This document shows, one piece after another, positions 3,110-63,928 of a stretch of 64,000 nucleotides of DNA (positions are counted from its first letter, which is position 1; every line of letters begins with the position of its first letter). A program made the position numbers and the translations under genes. The notes under the pieces were generated by a model. It was given only the letters and a program-made list of their open reading frames with translations, was not told the origin of the DNA and made no database searches. Source of the stretch: Candidatus Latescibacterota bacterium. GTDB lineage: Bacteria; Latescibacterota; UBA2968; UBA8231. The DNA is taken from positions 1,091,044 to 1,155,043 of the forward strand of contig CBDFJF010000002.1 of NCBI GenBank assembly GCA_965248265.1, given 5' to 3'.

Positions 3110-3112
3110 CCC

Positions 3113-43226: not shown

Positions 43227-43626
43227 GCGCTTAGTGAGGATAAGATAGGTTATCGTTACTAAGTCAGGCGGCGTTTTTTGCAATTTGCCGCATTTTGCCA
43301 GCATTGATGGCGGTTCTTTGTGGGGTGACGGTCGATCGACGAAAGCTGAGGCTTCGAACAGTGTCCTCGGAGCCGCTCTGAGCGAAACGGGCGTTCTCAG
43401 CGACAGATCAGGGCACAGCGGTGACGTTGCTGTGACCGCGAATCGATTTCAGGCGGCGAAATCCAGTTCAGGTTGGGGGTGGGGGCGTGCGGGTGCGATC
43501 GGCGGTGCCCGTGATGGCAGGCCGACGCCTTCCAGGTAGCGCGCAATGGAGCGGGGCTCGGTAAGGGCCGCAACTCCCTTCATCGGGCCGCCGCAGGCGG
43601 GGCATATGGTTACGTCGAATCGAAAA
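43227..43626 (-). mobile_element. IS91-family element end, copy 1. It consists of the 214-bp terminal (oriIS-like) module (43227-43440) plus a roughly 60-codon transposase 3' remnant.
   Basis: The module is identical to the other copies (gcgcttagtgaggataagataggttatcgttactaagtcagg...). The reverse frame ends ...FRFDVTICPACGGPMKGVAALTEPRSIARYLEGVGLPSRAPPIAPARPHPQPELDFAA*, typical of an IS91/ISCR TnpA C-terminus. Confidence 0.7.
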
Positions 43627-43627
43627 A

Positions 43628-44381
43628 ACAGATCGACATCGCAGACCAGAACCTCTTCCCGTCCCTCCCGATTCGCTCTCGCCAGGACCGAGCCGCTGGA
43701 CGAGTAGACTACACTGCCACCACTGCACGCATGGTCCCAGGACATACCCGTGCGGTTGCAGGCCAGCATGGGGGCGCCGATCTCCTGCGTGAGCGCACCG
43801 AGTTCGTCGAAGTCGGGCATGTTGCGACGGTTGTTGGGATAGAACACGACCTGGGGCCCCAATGCCCTGGCTCGCTCGATGCAGCGAGGCGCTTCCCCGT
43901 CGGAGCAGACGAAGCAGGTGGCCTTGATCCCATCGAACTCGAACAGCTCCGGACCCGTACCCGGATCGTATAGCGCCCATTCGTTGCGATATCCCGTATC
44001 CGTCGGGTCGGACCAGATCCAGGTCTTGCGGTATCCGTGCACCAGGCCCTGGGGGCCGACGAACACCTGTGAGATGTAGAACCGCTCGTCGTCGATTTCG
44101 GACAGGCCGAAGCTGATGAAGCAGTCTTGCTCTCGCGCCAGGGCGATAATGGACGAGGTCGAACGCCCCCCCGGCACAGGTTCGGCGTACTCCTGCAGAT
44201 GTTCCGTGTAGTCGCTTACCGTGCCTTCGTGAAAAATGATCCAGCGCGCGCCGCGATCCCGCGCCTGGCGCACGAAGGCGTGCATCTTGTCAAGATTGCC
44301 ATCGACATCTTCCGGCCGGGCGTCGAACTGTACCAGCGCTACGCGGATTCCAGGCACTCGAATGGCTCCAATGACTTCCAA
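43628..44381 (-). CDS. Carbon-nitrogen hydrolase family protein. Its last roughly 20 codons are replaced by an in-frame IS91 tnp remnant (the chimeric ORF extends to 43449).
   Basis: MEVIGAIRVPGIRVALVQFDARPEDVDGNL... with catalytic context FHEG (E), YRKTW (K), CSDGE (C). The ORF then reads through into transposase-derived sequence. Confidence 0.6.
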
Positions 44382-44422
44382 AACACCTGTTGATTGGCGC
44401 GGAAAACTTCAGCACGCGCGAC

Positions 44423-45151
44423 TCACCGCTTCTTGTGCCAGGCCTTCTCGAAGTGGTCGCGGGGGGCAAAGCCCAGGATTCGCTTGGCCTTCTCGTTGGA
44501 GAACTGACGGTGGGGCAGGTCGCCGAAGATGTTGAAGGCCTCGCAGCGGGAGGGCAACGTCGCCAGATCGACCTCGAGGGCGAGCCGGAAGGCCTCGCCG
44601 ACGTCCCGCCACGATGTGGTGAACGGGGTCAGATCCTCTCCCTCCCGCGCATCGTCGTCGTGGCGCAGGTGGAAGAAGAGCAGGGTCAGGACGTGGAGAT
44701 CGAAATTCTCGGTGAAGACCCTGCAGATCTCCTGCCCAAGCCCCTTGGTGATCGGGTACAGGCTGGTCGATGTCTGTGCCGGTACGTCGGGATGGATGTC
44801 GTAGTCGAAGTCGGTGTAGGGGAAGCCCTGGATGGTGAAATGGGGACCGCTGTTGACGACCCGCCCGATGCCGTGTTCCAACGCCGCGCGCATCGCGTTG
44901 TAGCAGCCGCGCGTGCTCACGTCGAAGGCGAGTTTTCTATCCTCCCGCAGCACCGACAGGTTGACGATCGCCTCCCTACCCTCGGCCGCCGCCACTACTT
45001 GATCGAGGTTCGCCACGTCCAGCTGCCGCGACTCGTGCTGCGTATCGATCGGCACGACGTCGGTCACCAGCAGCTCGTGGTGCTCACCGAGCGCCTTGAC
45101 CACCGACGGCCCCATGCGGCCACCGCCGCCGAGAATCAGGACCCGCATCAA
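44423..45151 (-). CDS. NAD(P)-binding epimerase/dehydratase-family (extended SDR) protein
   Basis: Rossmann fold, ILGGGGRMG. A tandem paralog lies upstream. Confidence 0.6.
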   Translation of the reverse strand: MMRVLILGGGGRMGPSVVKALGEHHELLVTDVVPIDTQHESRQLDVANLDQVVAAAEGREAIVNLSVLREDRKLAFDVSTRGCYNAMRAALEHGIGRVVNSGPHFTIQGFPYTDFDYDIHPDVPAQTSTSLYPITKGLGQEICRVFTENFDLHVLTLLFFHLRHDDDAREGEDLTPFTTSWRDVGEAFRLALEVDLATLPSRCEAFNIFGDLPHRQFSNEKAKRILGFAPRDHFEKAWHKKR

Positions 45152-45867
45152 CTGCCTCCTCCCGTGGCCGGCTGGAACACCGGCTCATAGCTCAGGTTGC
45201 TCCTGGCGCGGCCGATCAGGAATCGGGACCGGGCAAACTCCGACTGTATGTGATAGATCGCCCAGGTGTCGGCCGGCGATTCGAGGGAGCCGACAAACGC
45301 CTGCACGGCATCCTCGATCTCGAGCCAGCTGGTATCCAGCGGCTGGCCAGCAGCCTCCGCGGCGGTCACCAGGGTCCCGAGCCTGAGCAAAGTCACATTG
45401 ATCCGTCGTTCCCGGGCAAACTCGCGGACCGTGAACTCGCCGAGGTGTCTCGCCAGCACGTCCGCGTCAGTCGTGGGCGCCGGCCGCCACGATTCGGTCA
45501 CCGTCCAGTCTTCGTCGTGCCCCTCGAACAGGCGCAGGGTGCTGGTGTAGATCGCGTGCCCGATGCCGGCGTCAGAGGCGGCGTTGAAGAGGTTGTAGGT
45601 GCACCGCGTCTGGAAGTCGATCATCCGGCTCTCCGGCTGCAGCGACTCCGCAAGAACGGACGACGGCGGTTCAGCTACGTGGATGACCGCATCCATGCCG
45701 GCGACCAGGGTATCGGTCTCTTCCTCGTGACCGAGCTTGCACCTGACGAAATCGAAGTCGGTCTCAACCGGCACCAGGTCGGTGAGGCGCAGCTGGTGGT
45801 GCTCGCTCAATGCCGCGGCCAGCCGTTGCGCCAGTTGCGAAGCGGCCGAGGTGATCAGGATCTTCAT
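45148..45867 (-). CDS. NAD(P)-binding epimerase/dehydratase-family protein (tandem paralog)
   Basis: Similar to 44423-45151. Confidence 0.55.
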   Translation of the reverse strand: MKILITSAASQLAQRLAAALSEHHQLRLTDLVPVETDFDFVRCKLGHEEETDTLVAGMDAVIHVAEPPSSVLAESLQPESRMIDFQTRCTYNLFNAASDAGIGHAIYTSTLRLFEGHDEDWTVTESWRPAPTTDADVLARHLGEFTVREFARERRINVTLLRLGTLVTAAEAAGQPLDTSWLEIEDAVQAFVGSLESPADTWAIYHIQSEFARSRFLIGRARSNLSYEPVFQPATGGGS

Positions 45868-45901
45868 TCGCTGTTCCCCGTTATGGCGGGTACGTTGAGT
45901 T

Positions 45902-46477
45902 TCAGAACGACGCTTCTTTGGCCTTCACCAGCGCGGTAATCACCTCGTTGGTGGGCGCCGCCGTGCCGACTTCGCGGGCCACTACCGGGACCATGCCGTT
46001 GATGGCATCGATCTCGGTGCGCCGGCCCGCCAGGTAGTCGAGAAGCATGGAGGGCCGTGCATCGGGCATCTTCTCGGCAAAGGCCGTGATGTAGGCGGTG
46101 GCATCGTCGAACGAGAACCGCACGCCTTTTGCCACGCCGGCCTCGTAGGCCTCGAGACCGCAGCTCAGCGCCACGCCCCAGGCGTTCTCGTCGGCCATCA
46201 ATTCGCCAATGGTCTTCTCCAGCACCGTCGTAGGTCCGCTCAGGGCGACGTTGCAGATGAACTTCTCCCAGACCAGTTGCTGGATGTCGTCGTAGGTTCC
46301 GATGTTGAATCCAGCCTCTTTCCAGACGTCGGCCACCTTCTCGAGACGCTCGCTGATTTCACCGTTCATTTCGCCGAAGCGGATCAGCTGCATTCCGTTG
46401 TGATGGGCGTGACCGGGGCCCTTGATGGAGGCACCAAAGCCGCCGGCAACGCCGATCATAATTCTCTCGGCCGGCAG
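45902..46477 (-). pseudogene. 5'-truncated 2-dehydropantoate 2-reductase (ApbA/PanE) gene. Only the C-terminal roughly 190 codons are present, and it is cut exactly at the start of repeat copy 2.
   Basis: C-terminal ApbA_C-like sequence (...LLDYLAGRRTEIDAINGMVPVVAREVGTAAPTNEVITALVKAKE). The N-terminal Rossmann GxGxxG part is absent. The frame stays open up to the repeat boundary. Confidence 0.55.
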
Positions 46478-47757
46478 GGCGCTTAGTGAGGATAAGATAG
46501 GTTATCGTTACTAAGTCAGGCGGCGTTTTTTGCAATTTGCCGCATTTTGCCAGCATTGATGGCGGTTCTTTGTGGGGACGGTCGATCGACGAAAGCTGAG
46601 GCTTCGAACAGTGTCCTCGGAGCCGCTCTGAGCGAAACGGGCGTTTTCAGCGACAGATCAGGGCACAGCGGTGACGTTGCTGTGACCGCGCGGCTTTTGA
46701 GGTTTTTCGCGGGCGTTGAGGGCGATATGTGTGTTGCCCATCATTCGGTGAACTACGGGCCAGCGGATGGGGTGCCCTGATCAGCCTCTGCGGGCGCAGC
46801 GGCAGCTGTCAGCTAGAGATGGGGACGCAGCGGTGTCTGGCGTCGGTCTCAGGCGGCAAAGTCGAGCTCGTCTTGGGGATGAGGCCGTTCCGGGGCGATG
46901 GGCGGCGAGCGCGATGGCAAGCCGACACCCGCCAGATAGCATTGGATAGAACGTGGATCGGTGAGAGCAGCCACTATTTTCATGTGGCCACCGCAGGCGG
47001 GGCACACGGTAACGTCCACGCGAAAAACCCGTGCTAGCAAGGCGGCCCAGGCCAGTCGGTGCCGGCGTTGGGCGGGGGTGGGCTCCTCCGTATGCGCACA
47101 GGTCTCCGCTTCGGGGGCCTCTTCTTTGGGGCCCGGTACGATCTGTGCCCGATCGGCCGCATTGGGCGCCAACACGCCATGGTAGCGCACCAAGTTGAGG
47201 CGCCGTGGCGGCACCAGGGCGGCCAGTTTCTCTATCAATTCTTGCGGCGAGAGCTCAATTCGATAGGTGCCGTCCGACCAGACCGTTTTCAGGTCGAAAG
47301 CCACTCTTTCGGTATCCAGGATCTGCAGGCGTCCCGCTGCAAGCGGCGGTCTATTGACGTAGCGGCACAGTCTCTCCAGGCGGGTACGATCGGCGGCCGG
47401 CACGCGGGTGGCCGCATGCAGGGAGAAGCCGCGCGCGGCAAAGCACAACGGGCCGGTGCGGATGCCCTGCTGGGGATCGAGCAGGCGCCGGCGCACGGGC
47501 TGGCCAGCACGGTCGCCGGTGGCCACCCTGGACTGGATCGAGGCCGCAGTGATTGTTGCCAGCAGAGGCTCCTGCTCCATGAGCGGATCGGTACTGCCCT
47601 CTTCCAGCAGGCCGCGCCGTAGCAGCAGACGGACAACGCGTTGCGCCGTGGTCTCGACGATCTGTTGCATTGACGTTCGACGGGCGAGACACTCAAGACG
47701 CGTTTGCCAGGGCCGATCACATGGTTGAGAATAGCCGTGGGGCAAAGGAGAATTCAA
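46478..47757 (-). mobile_element. IS91-family element end, copy 2. It consists of the 214-bp module (46478-46690), a 160-bp unrelated spacer, and a divergent 302-codon 5'-truncated transposase remnant.
   Basis: The module is at least 98% identical to the other copies. The transposase remnant carries the Y2-region motif LERLCRYVNRPPLAAGRL and a C-terminal Zn-ribbon (CPACGG). It lacks the N-terminal HUH part. Confidence 0.7.
46849..47757 (-). pseudogene. IS91-family (HUH/Y2) transposase, 5'-truncated (C-terminal roughly 300 aa)
   Basis: ...RLCRYVNRPPLAAGRLQ...VDVTVCPACGGHMKIVAALTDPRSIQCYLAGVGLPSRSPPIAPERPHPQDELDFAA. It is about 85% identical over the C-terminal roughly 75 aa to the remnants in copies 1, 4 and 5. 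Confidence 0.65.
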
Positions 47758-48971
47758 TGAAAATCAAATCCGTCGAAGTCGTCAGCATCGAACGCCCAGG
47801 CGCCTCAAACGCATCCACAGGGTCTGGAACGACATTGGCAGCCTCAACCGCGTTCGTCCCTGAAACAGAAGGCCGTCGAAAAGCCTGGCCCACGCAAATC
47901 GAAGTCGCCAACCCCATGTCAAAATTCCCACGCTTCAAAACACGCCGCCAACTCTACAGCGCCAAGCAATGGCCGAGGTTCGGTGTCAAAGTCACCGCTG
48001 AAAACGGCACCTGGGGGTTGGGCACATCGGCCGGACGGCCAGCAGCCATGGTCGTCGAAGACGCATTTGCCCATATCCTTGAAGGTGAAGAATGCCTTGC
48101 GATTGAAAAGCTCTGGGACATGATGTTTCGTGTCTCCAAACCTTTCGGCACAGCTGGTATCGCCTCTCTCGCCATCAGCGCTGTAGATCTCGCCTTGTGG
48201 GATCTCGCTGGCAAACTGCAGAACAGACCTGTCTACGAACTCCTCGGCGGCCCCGTGCGTGACCGCCTGTTCACTTACGCCACTGGCGACGATGTCGATT
48301 GGTACAGGGAATTGGGATTTCGCGGTTTCAAACTCCCCTGCCAATACGGCCCCGTCGATGGTTTGCAGGGATTGCAGGCAAACGAAAAGCGCATCGCAGA
48401 AGTCCGCCAGCTCATCGGCGACGACAGCGAGCTCATGCTCGACTGTTACATGGCCTTCGATGTCGAATACGCCACCCGCCTTGCCGAACGTCTGCGTGCC
48501 TATGGCCTGCGCTGGATGGAGGAATGCCTGATCCCCGAAGACGTTCTCGGCCACATCGACCTCAGAAAGCGACTGCCCTGGATGGCCTTGGCCAGTGGTG
48601 AGCATTTCTACACACCTTATCCCTATCAAATCATCATCGAAAACCGTGCCCTCGATGTCCTTCAACCCGACATTCAATGGGTCGGCGGCATGACCGCCTG
48701 TGTCAAAATCGCCAACATGGCCGCCTCTGCCGGTTTGGAAGTCTGCCTTCACGGAGGTGGTCGCGATGCCTACGGCCAACACTTCAGCTGGGCCATGCCC
48801 AACACCCCGTGGGCCGAATACTACATCGGCTCAGATCCCGGCATTCCCCTCGAAGCAGTCGCCCAACCCGGCTCTGTCATTCCACGCGACAGCTATCTCG
48901 AATTCACGCAAACAGGCCCCGGTTTCGACCTCGGTGTCGAAGAAGAATGGCTTGTACCGTTTCAGCCATAG
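47758..48971 (+). CDS. Enolase-superfamily enzyme (mandelate racemase/muconate lactonizing-enzyme type, sugar-acid dehydratase-like)
   Basis: About 405 aa. The ATG at 47758 has an RBS aaggag. MR/MLE-like barrel motifs are present (KLWDMMFR...GIASLAISAVDLALWDLAGK). Confidence 0.65.
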
Positions 48972-48993
48972 TGATCATTTGCAAGGAGCTCAG

Positions 48994-49484
48994 ATGATAG
49001 TCGATTACCTCAGTAACGCACACAACTACTACGGCCTCGGGCCGCGGATAGAGGCTGCTCTGCGATATCTTCAGGATGACGATTTCGACGATTTGGAGGA
49101 GGGCAGCTTTGTGTTCGATCTGGAGCAGGAAGGGCTGCGGGCAGTCCGCAGCAACTTCGAGTCGCGGCCGATCGAGGACCCAAGTACGAGTTCCATCGGC
49201 GCTCCATCGACGTGCAGCATTTCATCGAGGGCGAGACGCTGTGCGGCTGGGCGCACATCAGTCAGCTGAAGCTGGAGGAATACCATGCCGAAGAGGACTA
49301 CCTGTTCGGCACGGGCGAAGGTGACCTGATCCGCGCCCGCCCCGGGACATTCTTCATCTTCGCCCCTCAGGACGGCCACATGGCCAACCTGCAGCCGCCG
49401 CAAGCTCCAGGACCGATCAAGATGAAGAAGTGCACGGTGAAGGTGGACCTCGACGACTCGAGTGCCTACTCCCGCGGTGCATGA
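48994..49484 (+). pseudogene. YhcH/YjgK/YiaL-family (DUF386) protein, with a frameshift near 49200
   Basis: MIVDYLSNAHNYYGLGPRIEAALRYLQDDDFDDLEEGSFVFDLEQEGL continues in another frame as HFIEGETLCGWAHISQLKLEEY...GTFFIFAPQDGH. Confidence 0.5.
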
Positions 49485-49502
49485 TTCGGGCGACCGGCCT
49501 CT

Positions 49503-50617
49503 CTACCCACTCACTTCAGCGGCCCAGGGCAGATCGTAGGAGGGGATATTGACGAAACGGTCCATGCCCAGATGCAGCCTGATCCTCGAACACGGCTTCA
49601 TCGCGACGCGGAAAAAAGAAGCCCCCACGGCGACTTCGTTCTCCTCGACCTCGCCGGCCATCTCCTCGTCGTAGCGTTCCTCTTCTTGCCAGTTGGTGCC
49701 TGAAAAAACGTCGTGACTGCGTCCGCTGGCCAGAGCCTGGTAACGGATGGTCGTGAATCGATGTTCGCCGAAGGCGCCGGCCTGCACCACCAGCTCCCGC
49801 CGGGTCGCCGCGCTCAGGTTGACCAGTGTCACGACTGCACCATCGGCGTCGATCGATTCGACCAGTGCCGCCACGTCCGGCGGCAGTCCCGGTCGCTTGC
49901 GGTCCCAGTCGTAGTAACGCAACCGCACCAGCAGCAGGCCGCCGTTGAAGCTGCCCGCCCATCGTCAGCTGCACCAGCCCCTCGGTGGTGATCGGATTGC
50001 GCACCTGCAGGTAGTGGTCGCCGTAGGTCGCCGGATCCTGCTCGTCGTGGGCCATGTAGGCCAGACGCTGGTAGACCTGACCGTGGTTGTAGTGCAGGAT
50101 CTGCTCCGGGTAGTCGGGGAACTCGCCCCGCAGATATCCCAGCCAGGTCGCCTCGTGACCTCCGCGGTCCTTGCCGCCTTTGACCTGTATCGTCTCCCAG
50201 TCTCGCGAGTTCGGGTCGCGCTGGCGCTCGATCCGTTCCATGTCGGCCGCCTCCATCGAGATAGACCAGACGTGGGCCATGAACCGGGCCTGTAACGGAC
50301 TGTAGCCGTCCCAGCCCTTGTCGTGGTGGTGATGGGGAACGAACAGGGCCCCGTCCCGGTCTTCCCCCGTTGGCCATCATCAGGTCGATCTGCGAGCGGG
50401 CTAAATCCATGTACTTCTGATCCCGGGAAACCAGCATGGCATTCTCGGCGCCGCTGAGCACCGCGTCGCCCATGGTGTGCCAGCCGTGCGGCCAGGTCCA
50501 ACCGTAGTACCCGCCGTACCACCGTCCGCCCAGGTACTCCCCGACCTGGCCTGACAGGCCCACGTTGTCGGGAAGAATGCCGTCGTTCGCTTCGACCCGG
50601 TCCATCCAGGCGCCCAC
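49503..50617 (-). pseudogene. Truncated and frameshifted paralog of the 616-aa gene at 9889-11739. It is cut at the start of repeat copy 3.
   Basis: Three frames carry homologous segments (MGAWMDRVEANDGILPDNVG...GGYYGWTWPHGW; RDWETIQV...; LRYYDWDRKRPGLPPDVAALVESID...). They align to the C-terminal roughly 370 aa of the 616-aa protein. Confidence 0.65.
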
Positions 50618-50618
50618 G

Positions 50619-50832
50619 GCGCTTAGTGAGGATAAGATAGGTTATCGTTACTAAGTCAGGCGGCGTTTTTTGCAATTTGCCGCATTTTGCCAGCATTGAT
50701 GGCGGTTCTTTGTGGGGTGACGGTCGATCGACGAAAGCTGAGGCTTCGAACAGTGTCCTCGGAGCCGCTCTGAGCGAAACGGGCGTTTTCAGCGACAGAT
50801 CAGGGCACAGCGGTGACGTTGCTGTGACCGCG
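50619..50832 (-). mobile_element. IS91-family terminal module, copy 3. Only the 214-bp module is present, with no transposase remnant.
   Basis: The module sequence is identical to the others. Unrelated sequence follows immediately after ...gctgtgaccgcg. Confidence 0.7.
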
Positions 50833-50975
50833 CCGTCGAAGGGGACTTTGTGATGATCGGGGTCTGCGCGTCGAGTAGATCTGGCGATTCAAAGGCCTTA
50901 AGGTCCTCTGCCGGCAGGGAGTCGTCGGAGTCTTCGGGGACCTCGAAGCGCGTGCTGTCGCAAGTCAGGCCGGTC

Positions 50976-52028
50976 CTACTCGTTGCCCCAGGGGTAGGAC
51001 GGGATGCGCAGTGATCGATCGGTGGCGGGCAAGTTCACCCGCGCGCCTGCATTGTTGCTGGAGAGGTGGATAGCGAAGCCGATCTCGGTAGCCCGGCGGG
51101 CGTGATCCACATCGCAGGCTGTGGTACCGCCAGTGCGTACTGCCTGTGCCAGATCACTCACTGCGGCTGGACCGGCAGGCCATCCCTCGGGCAGGATTGG
51201 CAGCTCCAGCGGGCGTGGTTGCAACTCTGCCCGCCCATCGCCGCTGGTCTCGGTCCACAGGTGCGCCTGGCGGGCATCGTTGAGGATCAGCAGCCGCCCG
51301 TGTTCGCCCAGTACCTCGAACCCGGCACCGGGGCCGCCCTCCGGTATCGCCACGGCTACCGCACCGTTGTCCAGACCGATCTGCGCCCTGCCAGTGGGAT
51401 CCATGCGACTTCGCGCGTCGGGCGGCTCGTCGGAAACGTCTTGCACGAAGCCGCTCACCCACACCGGTTCGGGATCGCCGGCCAGCGCCAGCATGGTGTC
51501 GTACCAATGGCAGCCGTGATTAATCAGGTTGGGCAGACCGTAACCGGTAACGCCGGTAACGGCGCCGATCGCACCATCGGCGATGACCTGGCGCAGGAAG
51601 CGGTAGGAGGAGTCCCAGCGTCGATCCAGTCCGAAGGCCAGCGGGACATTGGCGCGCCGGCATGCCTCCACAATGCGATCGGCCTCCTCCAGACTGGTCG
51701 CCAGCGGCTTATCGGAGAGAATGCCCCGCACTCCGGCCGCCAACGCCTGCTCGCATTGCTCCGCGTGCATCGTCTGGCGGACGGCGATACAGACGATGTC
51801 CGGCTGGGCCTCCTGGAGCATTTGTGGGTAGTCATCGTAGCTGGGGATGTCGCCCCAACATTCGACGAAGGCCGCCCTGGTTTCCGCTCCCAGATCGAAC
51901 ACCGCGACCATCTCTGTCCCGGTAACCGCAGCAAAAGCGCTGGCCCAGTTGTGGCCGGCCTGTGGGCGCGTCAACATGCGGTGACAGCCGGAAATCGCTA
52001 CGCGCAATGGCTTTTCAGTCTGTGTCAT
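50976..52028 (-). CDS. Gfo/Idh/MocA-family NAD(P)-dependent oxidoreductase
   Basis: LRVAISGCHRM ... ILSDKPLATSLEEADRIVEACRRANVPLAFGLDRRWDSSYRF. Confidence 0.6.
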   Translation of the reverse strand: MTQTEKPLRVAISGCHRMLTRPQAGHNWASAFAAVTGTEMVAVFDLGAETRAAFVECWGDIPSYDDYPQMLQEAQPDIVCIAVRQTMHAEQCEQALAAGVRGILSDKPLATSLEEADRIVEACRRANVPLAFGLDRRWDSSYRFLRQVIADGAIGAVTGVTGYGLPNLINHGCHWYDTMLALAGDPEPVWVSGFVQDVSDEPPDARSRMDPTGRAQIGLDNGAVAVAIPEGGPGAGFEVLGEHGRLLILNDARQAHLWTETSGDGRAELQPRPLELPILPEGWPAGPAAVSDLAQAVRTGGTTACDVDHARRATEIGFAIHLSSNNAGARVNLPATDRSLRIPSYPWGNE

Positions 52029-52031
52029 CTG

Positions 52032-52988: not shown

Positions 52989-53014
52989 GGTGGTCCTCCT
53001 CTTTCTTTTTTGGC

Positions 53015-53555
53015 TCAGTCCAGCAGGTCCAGCGCCTGCATCGCGGCGCGGATGTAGCCGAGGGCGAATGCACGGCCCCGGTGACCGTAGGCCGAGTCGC
53101 CGATCACCCTCGGCGTGTGGTCCGGGGTGATCACGCCCTGGTAGCCGGCGTCACGGTAGGCCTTGAGCGCCGCGATCATGTTCACGTCGCCCTCGTCGAT
53201 GAAAACTTCGTCGAACTTGGGTACGCCCCCTTTTACGTTGCGGAAATGGACGTAGAAGATCTTGTCCTGGGAGGCGAATCGCTCGATCGCGTCGAGGGTG
53301 TCTGCCGGTCCCATTTCCGCCACAGTGCCCTGGCAGAACTCGAGCCCGTTGTTGGGACTGGGCACCAGGTCGATCAGTCGTTGCATGGCGTCGTGGCTGG
53401 TCAACAGGCGACCGGTCCCGAACAGGCTCTCCACCGGAGGATCATCCTGATGGGCCGCAAGCTGCACGCCGGCGCGCTCGGCCACGGGCACGATGCGCTT
53501 GAGCATGTAGGCCAGCCGCTCCCACATCTGATCGACCGACACCGGCGCGTCTTCA
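53015..53555 (-). pseudogene. 5'-truncated mannonate dehydratase (uxuA) paralog. Only the C-terminal roughly 178 codons are present, and it is cut at the start of repeat copy 4.
   Basis: It aligns to the C-terminal half of 36648-37632 (WERLAYMLKRIVPVAERAGVQLAAHQDDPP ... IFYVHFRNVKGGVPKFDEVFIDEGDVNM ... GYQGVITPDHTPR). Confidence 0.65.
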
Positions 53556-54090
53556 GCGCTTAGTGAGGATAAGATAGGTTATCGTTGCTAAGTCAGGCGG
53601 CGTTTTTTGCAATTTGCCGCATTTTGCCAGCATTGATGGCGGTTCTTTGTGGGGTGACGGTCGATCGACGAAAGCTGAGGCTTCGAACAGTGTCCTCGGA
53701 GCCGCTCTAAGCGAAACGGGCGTTTTCAGCGACAGATCAGGGCACAGCGGTGACGTTGCTGTGACCGCGAATCGATTTCAGGCGGCGAAATCCAGTTCAG
53801 GTTGGGGGTGGGGGCGTGCGGGTGCGATCGGCGGTGCCCGTGATGGCAGGCCGACGCCTTCTAGGTAGCGCGCAATGGAGCGGGGCTCGGTAAGGGCCGC
53901 AACTCCCTTCATCGGGCCGCCGCAGGCGGGGCATATGGTTACGTCGAATCGAAAAACGCGTGCCAATAAGGTCGACCAAGAAAGGCGATGACGGCGTTGG
54001 GCGGGCGTCGGCTCAGAACCTCGACCGGGGAGCGCTTGGGGGGCCTGCCTCTCTTCCTTTGGGGGGACGGGGTATCGGTGGTTGCCCACA
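53556..54090 (-). mobile_element. IS91-family element end, copy 4. It consists of the 214-bp module plus a roughly 100-codon transposase 3' remnant.
   Basis: The module is identical to the others. The reverse frame reads ...EPTPAQRRHRLSWSTLLARVFRFDVTICPACGGPMKGVAALTEPRSIARYLEGVGLPSRAPPIAPARPHPQPELDFAA*. Confidence 0.7.
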
Positions 54091-54468
54091 GCAATGGGCG
54101 TTGACGGGGATACAACAGTGGATTATGTATGGGACGAAGATAGTCAGGCAGCTAGAGCAGTGGGAAGCGGGAATCAGTCAAACGTGCGATGCTCTGCGAG
54201 CATCTCCGTGATATTCCGATGGGCGCCGGAGGACGAGGTCGCAGTCAGCCTGGACGGAAACGCACTCGGCTCTCCGGCCATCATCGATGTTGCCGAGAAC
54301 GACGACGCCCCACCGAGGGTGTCGGAGAACAAGTGGCTGGTCTGGGACCTTAAGCCCGATCAGATCGCCAAGGGAGCGCACACGATCAAAGTGGTTCTGG
54401 TCAATCGAGATTCCAGAATCAAGGTGCCCCTGACCATCGACCATGTCGATCTACACGTGAGATACTGA
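54082..54468 (+). CDS. Hypothetical small protein (128 aa, possibly a beta-sandwich domain). The start is uncertain.
   Basis: This is an ORF only. It overlaps the end of the tnp remnant. Confidence 0.25.
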   Translation: MPTAMGVDGDTTVDYVWDEDSQAARAVGSGNQSNVRCSASISVIFRWAPEDEVAVSLDGNALGSPAIIDVAENDDAPPRVSENKWLVWDLKPDQIAKGAHTIKVVLVNRDSRIKVPLTIDHVDLHVRY

Positions 54469-54515
54469 TAGAACCGTACCCCCTCCATACCGCTCGATCT
54501 CCCAGAGGAGCCGCG

Positions 54516-56342: not shown

Positions 56343-56609
56343 TTCCCGGATAGCCTGGATCTGTTGGGTCGTCAGGCCGATCTCGCGCACGTAGGCTTCG
56401 ACTCCGCCGTACGTGTCTGAGCGTAATCCGCATGGTTTCAGCCGGAGCCAGATAATCCATGCTCTGCGCCCGCCGCAGGTCGTCCGTGGACCATCCCGGA
56501 GGAGGCCCGTCGGTCGAATAGCGCTTGAACGGGGTTGGTGCCGTCAAAATACCGATGTTACCATCCCTCCTGGTCCGCTTCATGCACAAGAACAAGGATC
56601 CGAGGTGAT

Positions 56610-58049
56610 CTAGGTGTCAGATTCTGACAGCTCGATGTATCTCAATCGGCGCTGGTGCCTTAAGACATCTTCTCGAAGCGCTTGGGCATCCCACCCGTTC
56701 GAACGGGCCAGCTGGTGGAGATCCTCGAGGATGTCTCTGCATGAGTCCTCTCCACTGAGATCGTTCCACTCGTGCGGATCTTCCTCCAGGTCGAACAGGA
56801 GTGGGGGCAGTCCGGGTGCAAACCAGGCTTTCCATCGCCCCCGACGGATCATCCTCATCGGCACGCGTGTGCCCTCGCAGGCGTAGTCGGACAGGACAAC
56901 CCGGTCAGGCCAACCCTCGGATGGATCCTCGAGCAACGACACCAGGGAATGGCCGGGCAGCTCCTCGAATCCCCGATCCTGTCCGGTGAGCTCCAGGAAC
57001 GTCGTCATCCAATCGACGGTCGATACCGGGGCCTGGCATTGGGCGCCGGCCTTTGCACAGCGCGGAGGCACGACGATCATGGGAACCCGCACGCTGTCCT
57101 CGTAGAAATTCAGCTTCGACCAGAAACCGTGCTCTCCCATGTTGTCGCCGTGATCGGACAGGTAGACGACCCAGGTGTTGTCTGCGACACCGAGTCGATC
57201 GAGGTGAACCACGAGTCTGCCGATCTGTTCGTCCATGCAGGTGATCATGCCGTAGTAACACCGGCGCGCAGTCCGCACTTCCTTTTCTGATGCACCATCG
57301 CCGGTCAGTCCCTGCCATCGTCTGAGCCCCTCCAGCTGCGCCGGCACCGAGTCTTCGTAGCTGCGACCATCAGGCGGCGTCCGGGGCAAGGGAATATCTG
57401 CTCCGTCATATCTATCGTAGTACTCCTGGCTGACCGCATACCGGAGGTGTGGCAGATAGAGGCCGACCATGAGCGCCCACGGACGACCGCTCTCACCCGA
57501 TGTAAGGAAGGACAGCTCCTGCAATGCAGCCTCGGTGACGGCTTCGTCGAATCGTTGCACCTTCGTCGGCTCCGCCGTCGGGCCCGCGTTCTTGAGCGCA
57601 GAAAGCATGCGGTGGGCATCCTCCTGGGGCTTGTCCCAGTCTGCGTGGCAGTACGGAGTCGGCTTGTGAGCAAACTCGTCGTGCACCCGCCGCTCGAAAC
57701 CATGCATCTGGTCGTGGCCGACGAAGTGCATGCGGCCACTGATCGATGTGGTATACCCTGCGCGGCGAAGGACGTGCGCCCACGTCGGCAGATCCGACCT
57801 CAGCGGCGCGCCGAGCTCCCACACCCCGTGCTCGGGAGTCAAGAGGCCGGTCATGAAGCTGGCACGTGACGGGGTGCACATCGGGTAGCAGCAATAGGCG
57901 TTGCGGAATGAGACGCCTGCCGCCATGAGTTGATCCAGGGTAGGCGTCTGCACCGCCGGATGGCCCATGCCTCCGATCGTTTCCGGAGCATGCTGGTCCG
58001 ACATGATGATGAGGAAGTTTGGCGTCGAACTGTCGGATCGAGTGGTCAT
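56610..58049 (-). CDS. Formylglycine-dependent sulfatase (arylsulfatase family)
   Basis: LIIMSDQH ... CTPSRASFMTG (the C-x-P-x-R FGly motif). It is 479 aa. Confidence 0.85.
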   Translation of the reverse strand: MTTRSDSSTPNFLIIMSDQHAPETIGGMGHPAVQTPTLDQLMAAGVSFRNAYCCYPMCTPSRASFMTGLLTPEHGVWELGAPLRSDLPTWAHVLRRAGYTTSISGRMHFVGHDQMHGFERRVHDEFAHKPTPYCHADWDKPQEDAHRMLSALKNAGPTAEPTKVQRFDEAVTEAALQELSFLTSGESGRPWALMVGLYLPHLRYAVSQEYYDRYDGADIPLPRTPPDGRSYEDSVPAQLEGLRRWQGLTGDGASEKEVRTARRCYYGMITCMDEQIGRLVVHLDRLGVADNTWVVYLSDHGDNMGEHGFWSKLNFYEDSVRVPMIVVPPRCAKAGAQCQAPVSTVDWMTTFLELTGQDRGFEELPGHSLVSLLEDPSEGWPDRVVLSDYACEGTRVPMRMIRRGRWKAWFAPGLPPLLFDLEEDPHEWNDLSGEDSCRDILEDLHQLARSNGWDAQALREDVLRHQRRLRYIELSESDT

Positions 58050-58053
58050 GCTT

Positions 58054-58122
58054 CGTGGTGTTGGCCAAAGGCGATGGCGTGGCCGTCCGGATCGCGCACC
58101 GCAAACTCCTTCATATCGTAAT
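58054..58122 (-). pseudogene. 22-codon C-terminal remnant of a VOC/glyoxalase-family gene
   Basis: MKEFAVRDPDGHAIAFGQHHEA*. The preceding remainder of the gene is absent. Confidence 0.3.
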
Positions 58123-58168
58123 CATCCTAAATACAAGGGTGGCGATGCCAGTCGCTGCGGGCTCGACC

Positions 58169-59213
58169 TCAGTGCCCGGCCAGCTCCGTCAACGCCGCGA
58201 GTACCTGAATCCGCGCCTCGTCCGCCATTGTCCGGTCCACGTTCTCGTTCAGCCAGTCAAAGTCGTCGTCTTCGATGTCGTCCCCATGCCCCCCTGCCTC
58301 GCAGACACGGGTCGGTAGAGTCTCCAGCAACCGACGGGCGCGCTCCAATTCCGGACCTGTGATCCCCTGAGCAGAGGCTTCCTGGATCGCCCGGTCCAGC
58401 ATGGCTAAGTACTCGTAGTCCTGGATCCCTTCCCTCGTCGCCTCGAGGTGTTTGCCCGCCGTCACCGAGACCTCGTCGAGGAAGATGGGGGTGTAAGGCA
58501 ACTTGGTAGTCACATATTCGTTCCACGATGACGCGCCGCCCGTGTCGCCGAACGACCACACGTGGATGGCCTCCGCCCCGTAACGCCAGCACGTCCACGG
58601 CATAAGCCGGCCCATGTACGGATCCTTGGTCCGACCCATCCACGCATTCCAGTACTCGAGGGCGATCCCCTGATCGCGCTTGTTCCGGAAATAGTTGCGA
58701 TACGCCTCGCCCTGCTTCAGAAAGGATCCATAGTGGGGACTCAACACATGGCAAGCGTTGATCATGTCCTGGTTCGCGTCGTCCATGCTGCTGTGGATCA
58801 CATTCTCCCAGACGCGGATACCCGTGCCGGCCTCGCGGATCGGCTTCGCCCAGGCCAGGATGCGCGCGTCCGCGTCTGGGTTGGCAGGAGTATCTGCCAG
58901 CAGCGCGCGAACTGCTCCGGTGATATTCCCTTGGACCTTATGTGTTCCGCCCAGAAGGTCACCCACGCCTTCACCGCGGTATTGAATTCCGGTGTCCCCT
59001 TGGGCCATGACTCGAAATTCTCGGTCGCGTCTGCGAATACCATGTACTGGGCTGCATCCGGCCACCGCTCGATCCAGGCATCGAAGTGGTCGGTGGTGGG
59101 TGGCGCCGTCATCGCTCCCGTCTCATCGTGCGTGCCGCGCGGCAGGGCCAGCGGGTGGGCCCACGGCGAATCGACGCGGTGTTCGCGCAGATGCTCGATG
59201 AACGCCGGCAGGT
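58169..59213 (-). pseudogene. Hypothetical gene (possibly carbohydrate-active). It has a frameshift near 58980 and is 5'-truncated at the start of repeat copy 5.
   Basis: Two overlapping frames (58169-59065 and 58798-59112) continue as an open frame up to the repeat boundary at 59214. Confidence 0.45.
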
Positions 59214-59532
59214 GCGCTTAGTGAGGATAAGATAGGTTATCGTTACTAAGTCAGGCGGCGTTTTTTGCAATTTGCCGCATTTTGCCAGCATTGATGGCGG
59301 TTCTTTGTGGGGTGACGGTCGATCGACGAAAGCTGAGGCTACGAACAGTGTCCTCGGAGCCGCTCTGAGCGAAACGGGCGTTTTCAGCGACAGATCAGGG
59401 CACAGCGGTGACGTTGCTGTGACCGCGAATCGATTTCAGGCGGCGAAATCCAGTTCAGGTTGGGGGTGGGGGCGTGCGGGTGCGATCGGCGGTGCCCGTG
59501 ATGGCAGGCCGACGCCTTCCAGGTAGCGCGCA
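59214..59532 (-). mobile_element. IS91-family element end, copy 5. It consists of the 214-bp module plus a roughly 29-codon transposase 3' remnant.
   Basis: Module present. The reverse frame ends ...ARYLEGVGLPSRAPPIAPARPHPQPELDFAA*. Confidence 0.7.
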
Positions 59533-59746
59533 AGCGACTCCAGTGACGGGTCGCAGGCGTGGTAGACATCGCACTTCGAGCGTATGGCGAGAAGTTCCCC
59601 TCGCAAGGTCTGACCTCGAAGCGAACCGGCCCGCCACCTCGGCGAGATCATCGCCGCCCGGACTCTGGCTGGCGCTCGACCACTTCACCGGCCACGTCGG
59701 CAGCTTTCTCACCCAGGCGTAGCCTGCCGCGCGGGCGTCGACAGCG

Positions 59747-61504
59747 CTAACGCGGTGGGATCATCGGCAGCACGATGTGTGAAGGGCTCCCCGAGTTGTG
59801 CACGACCGTGTTCGCGGCCACCTTGCCCGACGCTTCCCGGTGAATCGGACCGCCCGTGTTGAGGTTGCGGTCGAAGCGGGGAAAGCTGCTGCTCGTGACC
59901 ACAATCCTCATGCGGTGCCCCTCGAGAAACACGTTGCTGGTGGCCCACAGGTCGATCTCGAAGCGATACACCTCTCCAGGTACCATCAGCTCCGGCTTTG
60001 CGAACGAGTCTCGGTACCGAGCCCGAAGGATGCCGTCGCACACGGGGCGTGAGTACCCGTCGGGGTGCACGTCGGTCACCCGTACGATCCAGTCGGTGTC
60101 GGGCGCCGAGGAGGTGGCGTAGAGGACGGCCTTCACCGGGCCGGTGACCTCCAGTTCCTCGGTGAGTGGCTCGCTCGTGTACGTGAGGCAGATCTCATCT
60201 ACGGGTCGCTGGTCTATCACGCCGTCGGAGATCCCCAGGGTGGCGCCGCCCAGACTGGGCACCGGTCTTTGCGGGTCGTACTCGAAGGTGTCCGCCCCTT
60301 CGGCCCCTGGAGGCGGCTCAGCCGACAGCAAGCCGTCGTTCAGCGACTCGATCGAACCGCTGCGTGGCGCGCGCAGGTAGTAGTTGACGTACGTCGTGTC
60401 GGGGAGCGGCCAGTCCTCCTCGTCGCGCCATTCGTTGCGGCCCATCACGAAGATGCGCACCGGCGGCTCGTCCATCACTCCGTTGTCGATCCCCTTGAGC
60501 CAGTAGTCGAACCAGGGCAGACGCATCTCGTTAAAGTCTCTGGCCGCGCTCTCTCCGAAGTCGAACTCGCCGACGACGTGTTCGGCGATGTTCGGGGAGC
60601 CGTGGATCCAGGGCCCGATGATGAGCTTCTGACTATTACGCGCCTCCTCGGTGCGCGCCTTCGCCTTCATGCCGAGGAAATTCTTCAGCGTGCCGGCCAG
60701 GAAGATGTCGAACCACGCCCCCTGGTGGTACGTCGGCGTCTCGATCTGGTCGTGGTGCGGCTCGATGCTGAGCCCTACCCAGTACGGCCCGGCCTCGGGG
60801 TGGTCGAGCCAGACATTGTGCCAGTCGCTCAGCCCTTCGAGGAAGGTGCACGGGTAGACAGGCAACCTGGCCAGCCAGTCGTCCATCTCCTCGCCCACCT
60901 TGCACAAGAGCTTCTTCTGGCGCTCGAGCTCTTCCCCTTCGACCAGATGCTCGAGATTCTTCTCGGTCACGGTGTGCGCCCAGTAGGTGTTGAAGCCGAG
61001 CTCGAAGGCGCCGTCGCGATAGACCCACTCGCGCTGGAAATCGGCCGACGATTCGCGTACGAATGTCGCCCGCAGGTGGGGCGGCCGGCTGAGCGCGGCG
61101 CGGTACTGGGTCGCGCCGGAATAGGAGCCACCGATCATGCCGACATTGCCGTCACACCACGACTGCGCGGCCAGCCACTCGATCGTGTCGTACCCGTCCT
61201 GATTGGCGCCGGCGCCGTCGTCTCTGAAAGGGTAGAATTCGCCGCTAGAGGCGAACCTGCCGCGCACGTCCTGGACGACGACGGCGTACCCCCGTTGCGC
61301 GAAGAATTCGGGAGAGCCCACTGCGTTCTCCGAAGCCCCGTCCTTGTTGTAGACGGTGCGCTCGAGCAGTACCGGGAACGCCCTCTCGGCGTCCGGGCGG
61401 GTCACGTCGGCGCGCAGGATCGTGCCGTCGCGCATCGGCATTTCCAGGTTCTTCTCGAAAACCGTTTCAAACTGGGGTTGTGACAGGACTGCAGTGTTGA
61501 TCAC
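59747..61504 (-). CDS. CocE/NonD-family hydrolase (X-Pro dipeptidyl-peptidase S15-like)
   Basis: N-terminal MPMRDGTILRADVTRPD ... VVVQDVRGRFASSGEF ... GMIGGSYSGATQ, typical of the CocE/NonD family. It is 585 aa. Confidence 0.7.
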   Translation of the reverse strand: MINTAVLSQPQFETVFEKNLEMPMRDGTILRADVTRPDAERAFPVLLERTVYNKDGASENAVGSPEFFAQRGYAVVVQDVRGRFASSGEFYPFRDDGAGANQDGYDTIEWLAAQSWCDGNVGMIGGSYSGATQYRAALSRPPHLRATFVRESSADFQREWVYRDGAFELGFNTYWAHTVTEKNLEHLVEGEELERQKKLLCKVGEEMDDWLARLPVYPCTFLEGLSDWHNVWLDHPEAGPYWVGLSIEPHHDQIETPTYHQGAWFDIFLAGTLKNFLGMKAKARTEEARNSQKLIIGPWIHGSPNIAEHVVGEFDFGESAARDFNEMRLPWFDYWLKGIDNGVMDEPPVRIFVMGRNEWRDEEDWPLPDTTYVNYYLRAPRSGSIESLNDGLLSAEPPPGAEGADTFEYDPQRPVPSLGGATLGISDGVIDQRPVDEICLTYTSEPLTEELEVTGPVKAVLYATSSAPDTDWIVRVTDVHPDGYSRPVCDGILRARYRDSFAKPELMVPGEVYRFEIDLWATSNVFLEGHRMRIVVTSSSFPRFDRNLNTGGPIHREASGKVAANTVVHNSGSPSHIVLPMIPPR

Positions 61505-61519
61505 GCGGTTCCTTCGATA

Positions 61520-62671
61520 TCAGGGCAGGGCCTCGAAAAGGCGATCGATGTCGTCGTGGTTGTTGTACACCGACGGTGACAGGCGCATCTTGTTGCCGAA
61601 GCGCATGGCGATGTGAACGTCGTTGTTGCGGCAGCTGGCCATGGCTCGATCTGGGTCGGGCGCCACAAAGGCGACAATCGGGCTCTCGTTTCCCCTGGGA
61701 GTGATCGATTCGTACCCGCGCTGCGGCAGCTCCTCCTGCAGGCGCCCGGTCAGCTCCCGCGCATGATTGCGGATGTTCTCGACTCCCAGGTTCAGGATGT
61801 ATTTCACGCTCTCCCGCGCGCAGATGACCCCTTCGTAGGAGGGGTAGCTGACCTCGTACGCGCCGATCCCGGACGACGGTGAAAACGAGATCTCATCGCC
61901 GTCCAGGCCGGAATTCTCGCTCCAGGGCGGGTAATTGTACGAAACCCCGCCGGTGGGCTGGGACGGCTTGAGCACGGTTCCCTGCAGGCCGGAACGCACG
62001 TACAGAAACCCGAAACCCTTCACACCCATCAGCCACTTGAAGGTCGAGCAGGCGGCGAAGTCGATGCCCATCGCTTTGACGTCGATCGGCACGCATCCAG
62101 CTGCTTGCATTATGTCGACGTAGATGTACGCGCCGTGGTCGTGGGCGAGCTTGCTCAGGGCACTCACGTCGGCGAGGTATCCGTTGATGTTGGAAACGAG
62201 GGCCACCGATATGAGCCGCGTGTTACCATCGACCGCCTGTCGCATCGCGTCCATGTCGATCTGCCAGTCGCGGTTCTTGACGACGCGCACGTCGAGGCCC
62301 TGCTGCGCGCGAAACTTGTAGTTGCCGACACAAGGGTTGAAGTTCAGATCGGAGATGACCACGTTTCCGCCCTGGAGGTGGTCATTCAGTCCATTCAGGA
62401 TGTTGCTCTCCGATTCCACCGTGCTGCGCGCGTGGGCGATCTCTGTGGGGTCGGCGTTGATGAGCTCGGCGAAAAGGATTTTCGCCTTGTCCCGCGGCTC
62501 GGCCCAGGCCGGCCACCAGGGCTCGCCGACATCGTGTGTGACCCACTCCACATAACGGTGCAGCGCCGCGGCCGAATGCATGCTGATCGGATGCGACGAG
62601 GCGTTGTCGAAGTAGGCCATCGTGCGCGCCCGCGGAAAATCCTCGCGGACCCTGTCGAATAGGTCGCTCAT
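61520..62671 (-). CDS. Class-V aminotransferase / PLP-dependent (cysteine desulfurase / isopenicillin-N-epimerase-like) enzyme
   Basis: AAT-V fold with a likely PLP lysine in ACSTFKWLMG. It is 383 aa. Confidence 0.6.
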   Translation of the reverse strand: MSDLFDRVREDFPRARTMAYFDNASSHPISMHSAAALHRYVEWVTHDVGEPWWPAWAEPRDKAKILFAELINADPTEIAHARSTVESESNILNGLNDHLQGGNVVISDLNFNPCVGNYKFRAQQGLDVRVVKNRDWQIDMDAMRQAVDGNTRLISVALVSNINGYLADVSALSKLAHDHGAYIYVDIMQAAGCVPIDVKAMGIDFAACSTFKWLMGVKGFGFLYVRSGLQGTVLKPSQPTGGVSYNYPPWSENSGLDGDEISFSPSSGIGAYEVSYPSYEGVICARESVKYILNLGVENIRNHARELTGRLQEELPQRGYESITPRGNESPIVAFVAPDPDRAMASCRNNDVHIAMRFGNKMRLSPSVYNNHDDIDRLFEALP

Positions 62672-62861
62672 ATTCGCCCCCCGTCGAAGTCCGGCTCCGC
62701 CCGAAACACTTGACTGCTCACGATAATATAGCTTCTATGGACAAACCCGAACGGATAGGAATGTGGAGTCATCGGTAGCTGCGCCTCGCCGGGCGGCCTG
62801 ACAGTGGAATCCATTCCTGCAATCGGCAGTTGAGCCCCATCCGGCTATTTTTCGATTACCA

Positions 62862-62896
62862 ACTTTCCACTACGTTATAATTATATTATAATTAAG
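62862..62896 (+). promoter_or_regulatory. AT-rich putative promoter/operator of brnTA. It has a direct repeat of TATAATTA.
   Basis: acgttataattatattataattaaggc lies immediately upstream of the BrnT start at 62899. Confidence 0.4.
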
Positions 62897-62898
62897 GC

Positions 62899-63186
62899 AT
62901 GGCAGATCTACAGTTTGAATGGGACGAAGCCAAAAACAAAGCGAACCAAAGGAAACACGGCGTTTCATTCGAGGAAGCCCAGACGGTTTTTTTCGACGAG
63001 CATGCTGTACAGTTCTTTGATGACGATGTGCTTGGAGAGGATCGCTTTCTGATGCTGGGATGCAGCGCCAGGCTCCGCGTTTTGATTGTCGTCCACTGCT
63101 TTCGAGATGAGGAGTCAGTAATCCGCATTATTTCTGCCCGCAAGCCCACGAGGACGGAGCGGTCCGAGTACCCGGAGGAGTCATGA
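62899..63186 (+). CDS. brnT: BrnT-family toxin (DUF497)
   Basis: MADLQFEWDEAKNKANQRKHGVSFEEAQTVFFDE...IISARKPTRTER is the characteristic BrnT sequence. Confidence 0.75.
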   Translation: MADLQFEWDEAKNKANQRKHGVSFEEAQTVFFDEHAVQFFDDDVLGEDRFLMLGCSARLRVLIVVHCFRDEESVIRIISARKPTRTERSEYPEES

Positions 63187-63407
63187 AAAAGGAATACGAT
63201 CTTTCCAGCATGAAGCGCCGCAAGAACCCCTTCGCCAGCCGACTCAAGAAACAGGTGACAATCCGCCTGGGAGTGGACGTAATCGAGTACTTCAAGGCGC
63301 TTGCTGATGAAACCGGCATGTCGTACCAGAACCTGATCAATCTCTATTTGCGCGACTGTGTATCCAGTAATCGCAAGCCGGTCCTGGAATGGGAAGAGGT
63401 CGGATAG
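63183..63407 (+). CDS. brnA: BrnA-family antitoxin (CopG/RHH-like)
   Basis: KRRKNPFASRLKKQVTIRLGVDVIEYFKALADETGMSYQNLINLYLRDC. It overlaps brnT by 4 bp. Confidence 0.7.
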   Translation: MKKEYDLSSMKRRKNPFASRLKKQVTIRLGVDVIEYFKALADETGMSYQNLINLYLRDCVSSNRKPVLEWEEVG

Positions 63408-63432
63408 ATCCGTGTCCCGGGGAGAGTCATCC

Positions 63433-63857
63433 ATGAAAACCGCTGTCGTTGCAGGAGTCGGACCGGGGCTCGGTGCCGCTCTGGTTCGCAAGTTCGTTGC
63501 TGAAGGTTGCCGGGTGGGCATGCTCGCCCGCTCGCCCGATTACCTGGAAGAGCTACAAGCTGAACTGGGCGAAGAGAACGCCCTGGCCGTTGCCGCTGAC
63601 ATCACGACGGATACCGCCGTAGTGTCCGCCTTCGCTCGAGTCAGGGATCGCTTCGGACCGGTCGACATTCTGGTCAACCACGCCAGCCTGTCGAACTGGA
63701 AAGGCCTCATGGACATAACACCGAAGGAGTTCGAGCGCGCCTGGCGCGTGACCGTTCTCGGAGCGCTGCATTGCAGCCGGGTGGCTGCAACCGACATGCT
63801 GGCCGACAATCGTGGTGGGACCATTCTCTTCACGGGAGCGACTTCATCCATTCGCGG
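63433..63857 (+). pseudogene. 3'-truncated short-chain dehydrogenase/reductase (SDR) gene. About 141 codons are present. It is cut where repeat copy 6 begins.
   Basis: MKTAVVAGVGPGLGAALVRKF (the TGxxxGxG Rossmann motif) ... FTGATSSIRG, after which the frame continues into repeat sequence. SDRs are normally about 250 aa. Confidence 0.6.
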
Positions 63858-63928
63858 GCGCTTAGTGAGGATAAGATAGGTTATCGTTACTAAGTCAGGC
63901 GGCGTTTTTTGCAATTTGCCGCATTTTG
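63858..63928 (-). mobile_element. IS91-family terminal module, copy 6. Only the first 71 bp of the module are present.
   Basis: gcgcttagtgaggataagataggttatcgttactaagtcaggcggcgttttttgcaatttgccgcattttg is followed by unrelated sequence to the window end. Confidence 0.6.

Follow-up and report, generated by a model that had tools for sequence, protein, structure and literature searches.

Co-oriented, 5'-truncated ISCR-like elements in a Candidatus Latescibacterota genome, and how they may have come to abut unrelated genes

How does a single short sequence come to lie, always in the same orientation, against a series of unrelated and often incomplete genes? The question is raised by a stretch of 64,000 nucleotides from a Candidatus Latescibacterota bacterium (GenBank assembly GCA_965248265.1, contig CBDFJF010000002.1, positions 1,091,044 to 1,155,043 of the forward strand), referred to here as the window and numbered from its first letter. 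Between positions 43,227 and 63,928 it holds repeated copies of a module of about 214 nt, which the initial annotation, made from the sequence alone, took to be ends of rolling-circle insertion sequences (IS) of the IS91 family. Seven defective ISCR-like elements are clustered in this region, six of one type (type A) and one of a second type (type B), all in one orientation, and each of the seven retains the origin (oriIS) end alone.

The constant edge of these copies is a 31-nt boundary motif, GCGCTTAGTGAGGATAAGATAGGTTATCGTT, which occurs six times on the + strand of the whole window and not at all on the - strand; shuffled windows are expected to give 0 matches. The occurrences start at 43227, 46479, 50619, 53556, 59214 and 63858, and every copy begins GCGCTTAGTGAGG. 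The same six co-oriented copies with a common boundary had been listed before, with the second starting at 46478 rather than at 46479. Copy-to-copy spacing is 3252, 4140, 2937, 5658 and 4644 bp, and this measured range of 2937-5658 bp bears out the 3-6 kb first given. The boundary is sharp in six of six copies, and the bases adjoining it vary from copy to copy. On the inner side, the extent of what is kept differs. Copy c1 (43227..43627, - strand as are all the others; 401 nt retained from the boundary) consists of the type-A origin-end module of 214 nt plus the last 59 transposase codons, c4 (53556..54063; 508 nt) of the module plus the last ~94 codons, and c5 (59214..59533; 320 nt) of the module plus the last ~33 codons. 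The module stands alone, with zero transposase codons, in c3 (50619..50832; 214 nt), and it also stands alone in c2A (46479..46690; 212 nt, through a 2-nt internal deletion), whose inner breakpoint, ...GTGACCGCG, is the same as that of c3. Next to c2A lies the type-B element, c2B (46691..47669), made of a partial 3' untranslated region (46691-46848) and a transposase remnant. Copy c6 (63858..63928) keeps the outer 71 nt of the type-A module and then diverges into unrelated, AT-richer sequence for the 72 nt left to the window end, a tail that finds no match among the sequences compared. The copies are 97-100% identical across at least 212 nt; private single-nucleotide polymorphisms (SNPs) and indels set them apart, and their differing truncation points adjoin unique DNA. 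The window contains no further copy of the repeat, and no inverted repeats were found in it.

What the copies are copies of can be told from the remnants of coding sequence on their inner side. A tblastn search of the window with a full-length relative of the transposase (P0001, ~486 aa, on which all remnant positions are numbered) finds four fragments, all of them C-terminal: aa 213-486 (274 codons) in c2 at 46852-47673, aa 394-486 in c4 at 53781-54062, aa 428-486 in c1 at 43452-43628 and aa 454-486 in c5 at 59439-59537. Copy c3 has none, and the sizes agree with the remnants of 0, 29, ~60, ~100 and ~300 codons described earlier. The same search finds neither the N-terminal part of the transposase nor, as the initial annotation had also stated, a full-length gene in the window, so that any mobility of the copies would need a transposase acting in trans. 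The longest remnant, in c2B, is 90% identical to P0001. It lies in an open reading frame (ORF) of 302 aa (46849-47757, - strand) that matches Pfam Y2_Tnp (PF04986) at 1.7e-19 and whose top NCBIfam model is "ISCR element clade Ia" (3e-54, profile positions 211-485 of 509). Its relatives in the databases measure 480-490 aa and have both Zn_Tnp_IS91 (PF14319) and Y2_Tnp domains. The c2B remnant retains the Tyr motif and is without the HUH motif and the Zn ribbon. As none of the window remnants has the HUH motif (all start at aa 213 or later), which P0001 and P0006 carry as NPHVHV, they are predicted to be catalytically dead.

The assignment to the IS91 family is upheld by the Y2_Tnp match and can be refined to ISCR-like, given the best-scoring clade Ia model and the number of tyrosines. 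Inspection of the transposase alignment finds one invariant Tyr, Y317, in LERLCRYVNRPP, with an Arg four residues upstream, which points to a single-tyrosine (Y1) state as in ISCR and not to the Y2 state of IS91; ISCR transposases have one catalytic Tyr and IS91 has two (PMC10288648). A closest IS91/ISCR relative had been left to be sought, and the closest named one to the full-length transposase is ISVsa3/ISCR2, at 41% aa identity over 93% of the protein. Because full-length relatives fall under the cut-offs of both NCBIfam models, scoring 382-390 bits (the remnant 184 bits) where NF052416 (ISCR clade Ia) requires 925 and 107 and 111 bits where NF033538 (transpos_IS91) requires 125, the element very probably belongs to an ISCR-like lineage of the IS91 family that is related to clade Ia and lies outside the curated clade.

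The place of the module within a complete element is seen in locus L002, a 235-kb contig on which a full-length gene (10001-11446) is followed, 27 nt past its stop codon, by a module homologue (11473-11678), with two more 5'-truncated copies downstream in the same orientation. In type A, 214 nt plus ~10 nt separate the boundary from the stop codon. Since the L002 module comes directly after the stop codon, the module is best read as the region of ~225 nt from the transposase stop codon to the end of the element, in line with its earlier description as an IS91-family terminal module. The left end of the full-length L002 copy is unrelated in sequence to the origin end. The 5' ends of full-length elements have no match in the window, and no 5' fragments or terIS-side sequence occur in the window, in L002 or in L003 (a 4.13-Mb contig). 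The opposite, Helitron-like polarity, with the module as terminator, was tried and rejected: the retained end is the one that is essential for initiation in IS91 experiments. The module itself matches no Rfam family and no plasmid, an exact-pattern search of representative genomes returned nothing, and a scan of JGI metagenomes with it gave five short contigs only.

At its outer edge the module carries a terminal hairpin (43230..43263, + strand; stem of 8 + 5 bp) with CCTATC in the loop, a sequence related to the ISCR oriIS core. The hairpin is present in six of six window copies and has a folding energy of -11.6 kcal/mol (z-score -2.6, + strand). In the window type AACCTATC lies in the loop and a further 15-17 nt follow to the end of the element, whereas a core of the TTCTTCCTATAC type is itself terminal in Candidatus Latescibacterota relatives, which end ...ACCTATACTT or ...CTTCCTATAC, and in ISCR2, which ends TTTATTCTTCCTATAC. 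The type-A element probably ends at GCGCTTAGTG.

The retention of one end in one orientation is not peculiar to the window. In a comparative set of 78 loci from other genomes, nearly all secondary fragments (those within 10 kb of a primary copy) keep the C-terminus and are without the N-terminus, and about 25 of 26 share the strand of the primary copy. In the 150 nt nearest the origin, copies of one array have a median identity of 94%, against a median of 83% for copies from different arrays of one genome (p = 3e-9), and this higher identity within arrays argues that the clusters are generated locally. Complete long-read Latescibacterota chromosomes have arrays of 3-5 copies that are 2-7 kb apart. 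L003 has at least four co-oriented copies within 20 kb that are 100% identical to one another, which may be taken as an indirect sign of mobility, and the contig carries more truncated copies elsewhere. Orientation with respect to replication gives no support for a replichore bias (20 to 16 by GC skew, 21 to 14 by gene-strand bias). Truncated ISCR remnants fused at the inner junction to other gene fragments are also seen at L090 (10001-11188) and L003 (9435-10855), with partners that include an IS4-like transposase and DegT, in IS-packed regions of the 4.13-Mb genome.

An account in two steps, early termination and then origin-anchored events, is on balance the probable explanation of the array. 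If the element behaves like IS91 and IS801, a transposase provided in trans would nick at the constant boundary, and a strand would be peeled off from the origin toward the 5' end of the gene. Frequent early termination would then, as the first step, yield products that still have the origin but are without a 5' portion of variable length. This step has an experimental precedent in IS801, which produces origin-end fragments of 229, 360 and 679 nt in 26% of events and read-through in 0.7% (PMC3189936); as such fragments are known, polar 5' truncation is to be expected of an element that initiates at its origin. The progressive 5' truncation, which the initial annotation had regarded as unexplained, finds its precedent in this premature termination (PMC3189936). 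In IS91, termination fails in 1-10% of events, and a bottom-strand single-stranded circle is formed (PMC13181058). Counted from the origin, 13 truncated copies retain between 66 and 1090 nt. Copies c2A and c3 break at the same inner point (position 212/214), 6 nt after a 6-bp hairpin, and c6 (71 nt) and a copy at L004 (66 nt) break just past the other hairpin. Such hairpin-adjacent breakpoints may be pseudo-termination sites. Breakpoints 6-7 nt after hairpins recur at 43440, 46690, 50832 and 63928 in the window and at L004.

The second step is the more conjectural of the two. Here the origin junction would remain a live site of cleavage and joining, and later origin-anchored events would bring arbitrary DNA, in many cases cut mid-gene, up to the constant boundary. 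In the IS91 family the origin end adjoins a target tetranucleotide that persists and can be retargeted (PMC13181058, PMC10288648). Insertion at origin junctions is also favoured by an ISCR2 copy on which 98 bp of the origin end stand in tandem. Two routes are conceivable and are given roughly equal weight: read-through products might have been inserted at the origin junction (accretion), which we entertain tentatively, or deletions might have started from the origin junction, a deletion or reorganisation in place that is likewise a tentative proposal.

The junctions themselves bear on this step. On the outer side, the c2 boundary cuts a PanE/ApbA gene that is without its N-terminal domain (45902..46478, - strand), the c3 boundary cuts a frameshifted fragment of a 616-aa-family gene that begins at about aa 262 of the family (49516..50618, - strand), and the c4 boundary cuts uxuA, of which the C-terminal half remains (53015..53555, - strand; profile positions 177-351 of 352), with intact ADH and Gfo/Idh/MocA genes downstream of it. 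The c6 boundary cuts an SDR gene that is without its C-terminal part (63358..63857, + strand; adh_short positions 1-139 of 195), and an unannotated ORF of high GC3 on the + strand runs into the c5 boundary. The earlier claim that every copy abuts a cut gene is right for PanE, the 616-aa-family gene, UxuA, SDR and the c5 ORF; it fails for c1, whose boundary lies in 110 bp of non-coding DNA past an intact PD40 gene and cuts nothing. Across c2, c3 and c4 the rest of panE, of the 616-aa-family gene and of uxuA is not found, and for this reason these three copies are not simple insertions. Copy c1 was tried as a simple insertion too, and this was rejected: taking it out yields TGG and no restored stop codon. 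On the inner side of c1 a CN_hydrolase gene, complete except that it has lost its stop codon at the junction, runs in frame into the remnant, forming an ORF (43449-44381, - strand) in which 59 transposase codons are read through. The homologues of this CN_hydrolase terminate precisely where the c1 junction lies (...DLDL, then stop), and public gene calls record the fusion as a chimeric protein of 302 aa (P0241). Overall, origin-side junction flanks are coding in 4-5 of the six window copies and inner flanks in 0 of 5, where the background for random positions is 68% coding (~0.003 for the inner set). This asymmetry is predicted by both routes of the second step and is not predicted by recombination between copies.

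Several observations count against the two-step account. Transposition of an ISCR element has not been shown experimentally for any member of the group (PMC6218425). The flank pattern is reversed in other genomes, where coding sequence reaches the junction at 8 of 31 origin-side and 9 of 23 inner flanks, so that the asymmetry in the window rests on five to six junctions. No donor or duplicate copy of any cargo is present in the window or in the sampled loci of related genomes; what loci or genomes share is only other insertion sequences or orthologous regions. The 12 boundaries in the window, L002 and L003 have no flanking bases in common and show no target tetranucleotide, and the truncation points of 13 copies show no motif, where IS91 and IS801 do show one. 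The L002 subtype does not conserve the outer stem of the terminal hairpin, and each of the hairpin-adjacent hot spots rests on two breakpoints.

A stricter form of accretion, close to what the initial annotation had proposed, is doubtful. It would make each 3-6-kb unit (origin, remnant, cargo) one product of one-ended read-through that ends at a random point, and would have products of donors elsewhere inserted exactly at a resident origin junction, stacking head to tail. The copies are indeed co-oriented and head to tail, and the units start at or beside gene ends and stop mid-gene. Known behaviour of related elements fits as well: the IS91-family target persists next to the origin end (PMC13181058, PMC10288648), IS801 mobilised adjacent DNA in 0.7% of events (PMC3189936), and an ISCR2 origin-end fragment is found inserted directly at an origin boundary. 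The two frameshifted genes of unit 2 would fit redundant copies. Strict accretion is at odds, however, with the finding that no cargo occurs twice in the window or the sampled related loci, and with c2A and c3, which share one truncation point but have different cargo and so do not come from one donor. The nearest relatives of a copy in related genomes are the other members of its own array, which argues for a local origin and not for distant import, and the origin boundaries in these genomes are mostly non-coding. In c2, moreover, the type-A module does not meet type B at the boundary of the type-B origin region, the join lying 46 nt further in. The original picture of the units as stacked read-through products has in its favour the mid-gene cuts, which lie on the origin side only, and a 98-bp tandem duplication in ISCR2, but it is unproven, as cargo is not duplicated, the genes of the different units resemble a single catabolic neighbourhood and no termination motif is seen; unit ends and truncation points have no common motif.

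Copy c2 deserves a closer description, since it also bears on recombination. It consists of the complete type-A module (46479-46690) followed by the 3' region and gene remnant of type B, which has ~70% nt identity to type A and 88% to L001. The type-B part is without its outer ~46 nt, and the join has a 3-nt microhomology. In L001 the type-B ISCR origin region is interrupted by an IS110-family element (1763-3370), at a site within about 3 nt of the window join 46690/46691, and the outer terminus reappears at the L001 contig end. It may be that IS110-type elements target ISCR origin regions, or that the site is a fragile one.

That the copies were inserted independently, and that homologous recombination between co-oriented copies then deleted the intervening DNA and left non-matching flanks, is improbable. 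With 97-100% identity over at least 212 nt the copies would offer a substrate, the genes across the units resemble one catabolic neighbourhood, and most genomic IS801 fragments were concluded to stem from reorganisations (PMC3189936). Recombination is, however, unable to create truncations, predicts like sites on both sides where the origin side is observed to be mid-gene and the inner side non-coding, and cannot build the complete type-A, partial type-B structure of c2 with its 3-nt microhomology. Just as improbable is the reading of origin ends as reusable joining sites that make cassettes of the origin-to-origin intervals, a single-Tyr HUH transposase acting in trans excising a single-stranded circle and reinserting it at another origin junction. 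If true, it would amount to integron-like gene shuffling on rolling-circle chemistry, local and directional, and active in Latescibacterota and several other environmental phyla. A chimeric assembly, in which a collapsed or mis-joined repeat has given false joins, is very unlikely indeed: a repeat of 212-508 nt at 97-100% identity has the length to confuse short-read assemblers, but the window comes from a 4.14-Mb contig and complete long-read genomes have similar arrays of the same architecture, L003 holds mutually identical copies, the ORF across the c1 junction (P0241) is on record on a contig of 4,141,828 bp, and the copies have private SNPs and indels and distinct truncation points joined to unique DNA.

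Other features of the window can be given more briefly. The BrnT/BrnA toxin-antitoxin pair reported before is confirmed at 62899-63407 (+ strand); it is intact and stands in unit 5, with the cut SDR gene directly downstream. Each split over two reading frames are a YhcH/DUF386-like gene (48990-49484) and the 616-aa-family fragment (49516-50617), which are either pseudogenes or carry indel errors. A synteny comparison for close homologues of the ADH gene finds that the contexts at 79-80% identity are not syntenic and so carry no information on the array. A family of 43-nt direct repeats at 41549-43052 corresponds to the PD40 beta-propeller repeats of a 568-aa gene. At 24-140 (- strand) there is a match of 101 bits to the ALIL pseudoknot, the frameshift element of the IS3 family, so that an IS3-type element lies at the left edge of the window. 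A xylose-isomerase-like TIM barrel gene (20423-21298) has 86% nt identity to Latescibacterota L066 (8069-8945), which may point to the host lineage or to gene transfer. A sigma-70 scan of the module finds no outward promoter. The array appears to be without a function of its own beyond homology for recombination and, possibly, read-out transcription.

The assembly of multi-gene resistance regions is blamed on ISCR elements, and most examples come from clinical plasmids. The same architecture is met here in environmental chromosomes: the boundary at the origin is constant, the neighbours vary and the copies are co-oriented. Polar truncation, co-orientation of ~25:1 and kinship within clusters amount to natural-history evidence for local activity anchored at the origin, and these cross-genome regularities are the most useful by-product of the analysis. 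Recent identical copies offer a set from which a testable element can be chosen. For genome annotation, ~20 kb can be flagged as gene fragments and fused ORFs.

Among known systems, ISCR2/ISVsa3 is like the window type in its single catalytic Tyr, in an origin region that extends ~100-230 bp past the stop codon and has a CCTAT-type motif, and in co-oriented copies that bracket unrelated genes. It differs in its clade, the window lineage scoring 382 against the clade Ia cut-off of 925, and in its terminus: ISCR2 ends at TTCTTCCTATAC, whereas the window type has AACCTATC in its terminal hairpin and 15 further nt. The window also differs from ISCR2 in having an environmental host and catabolic cargo, not resistance genes. 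On plasmid LC807805.1 (L089, 2050-2250), the last 98 bp of an ISVsa3/ISCR2 copy stand in perfect tandem, giving two oriIS ends, and a second ISCR2 copy there is without the origin motif. ISCR1 shares with the window a constant boundary on the oriIS side, a region of 232 bp after the gene and many different neighbours (PMC6218425). Unlike the window copies, which are all truncated and have no integron, it is usually full length and tied to the integron 3' conserved segment. IS801 of Pseudomonas syringae likewise has origin-end fragments of variable length and occasionally captures neighbouring DNA (PMC3189936), but its fragments end at tetranucleotides related to the left end, none of which is seen in the window, and its transposase has two catalytic Tyr. 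As an analogy only, 5'-truncated long interspersed nuclear elements (LINEs) show polar truncation anchored where copying starts and a broad spread of retained lengths, with an entirely different enzyme and nucleic-acid intermediate. Set beside these systems, the array is an environmental example of known mobile-DNA debris and not a new system.

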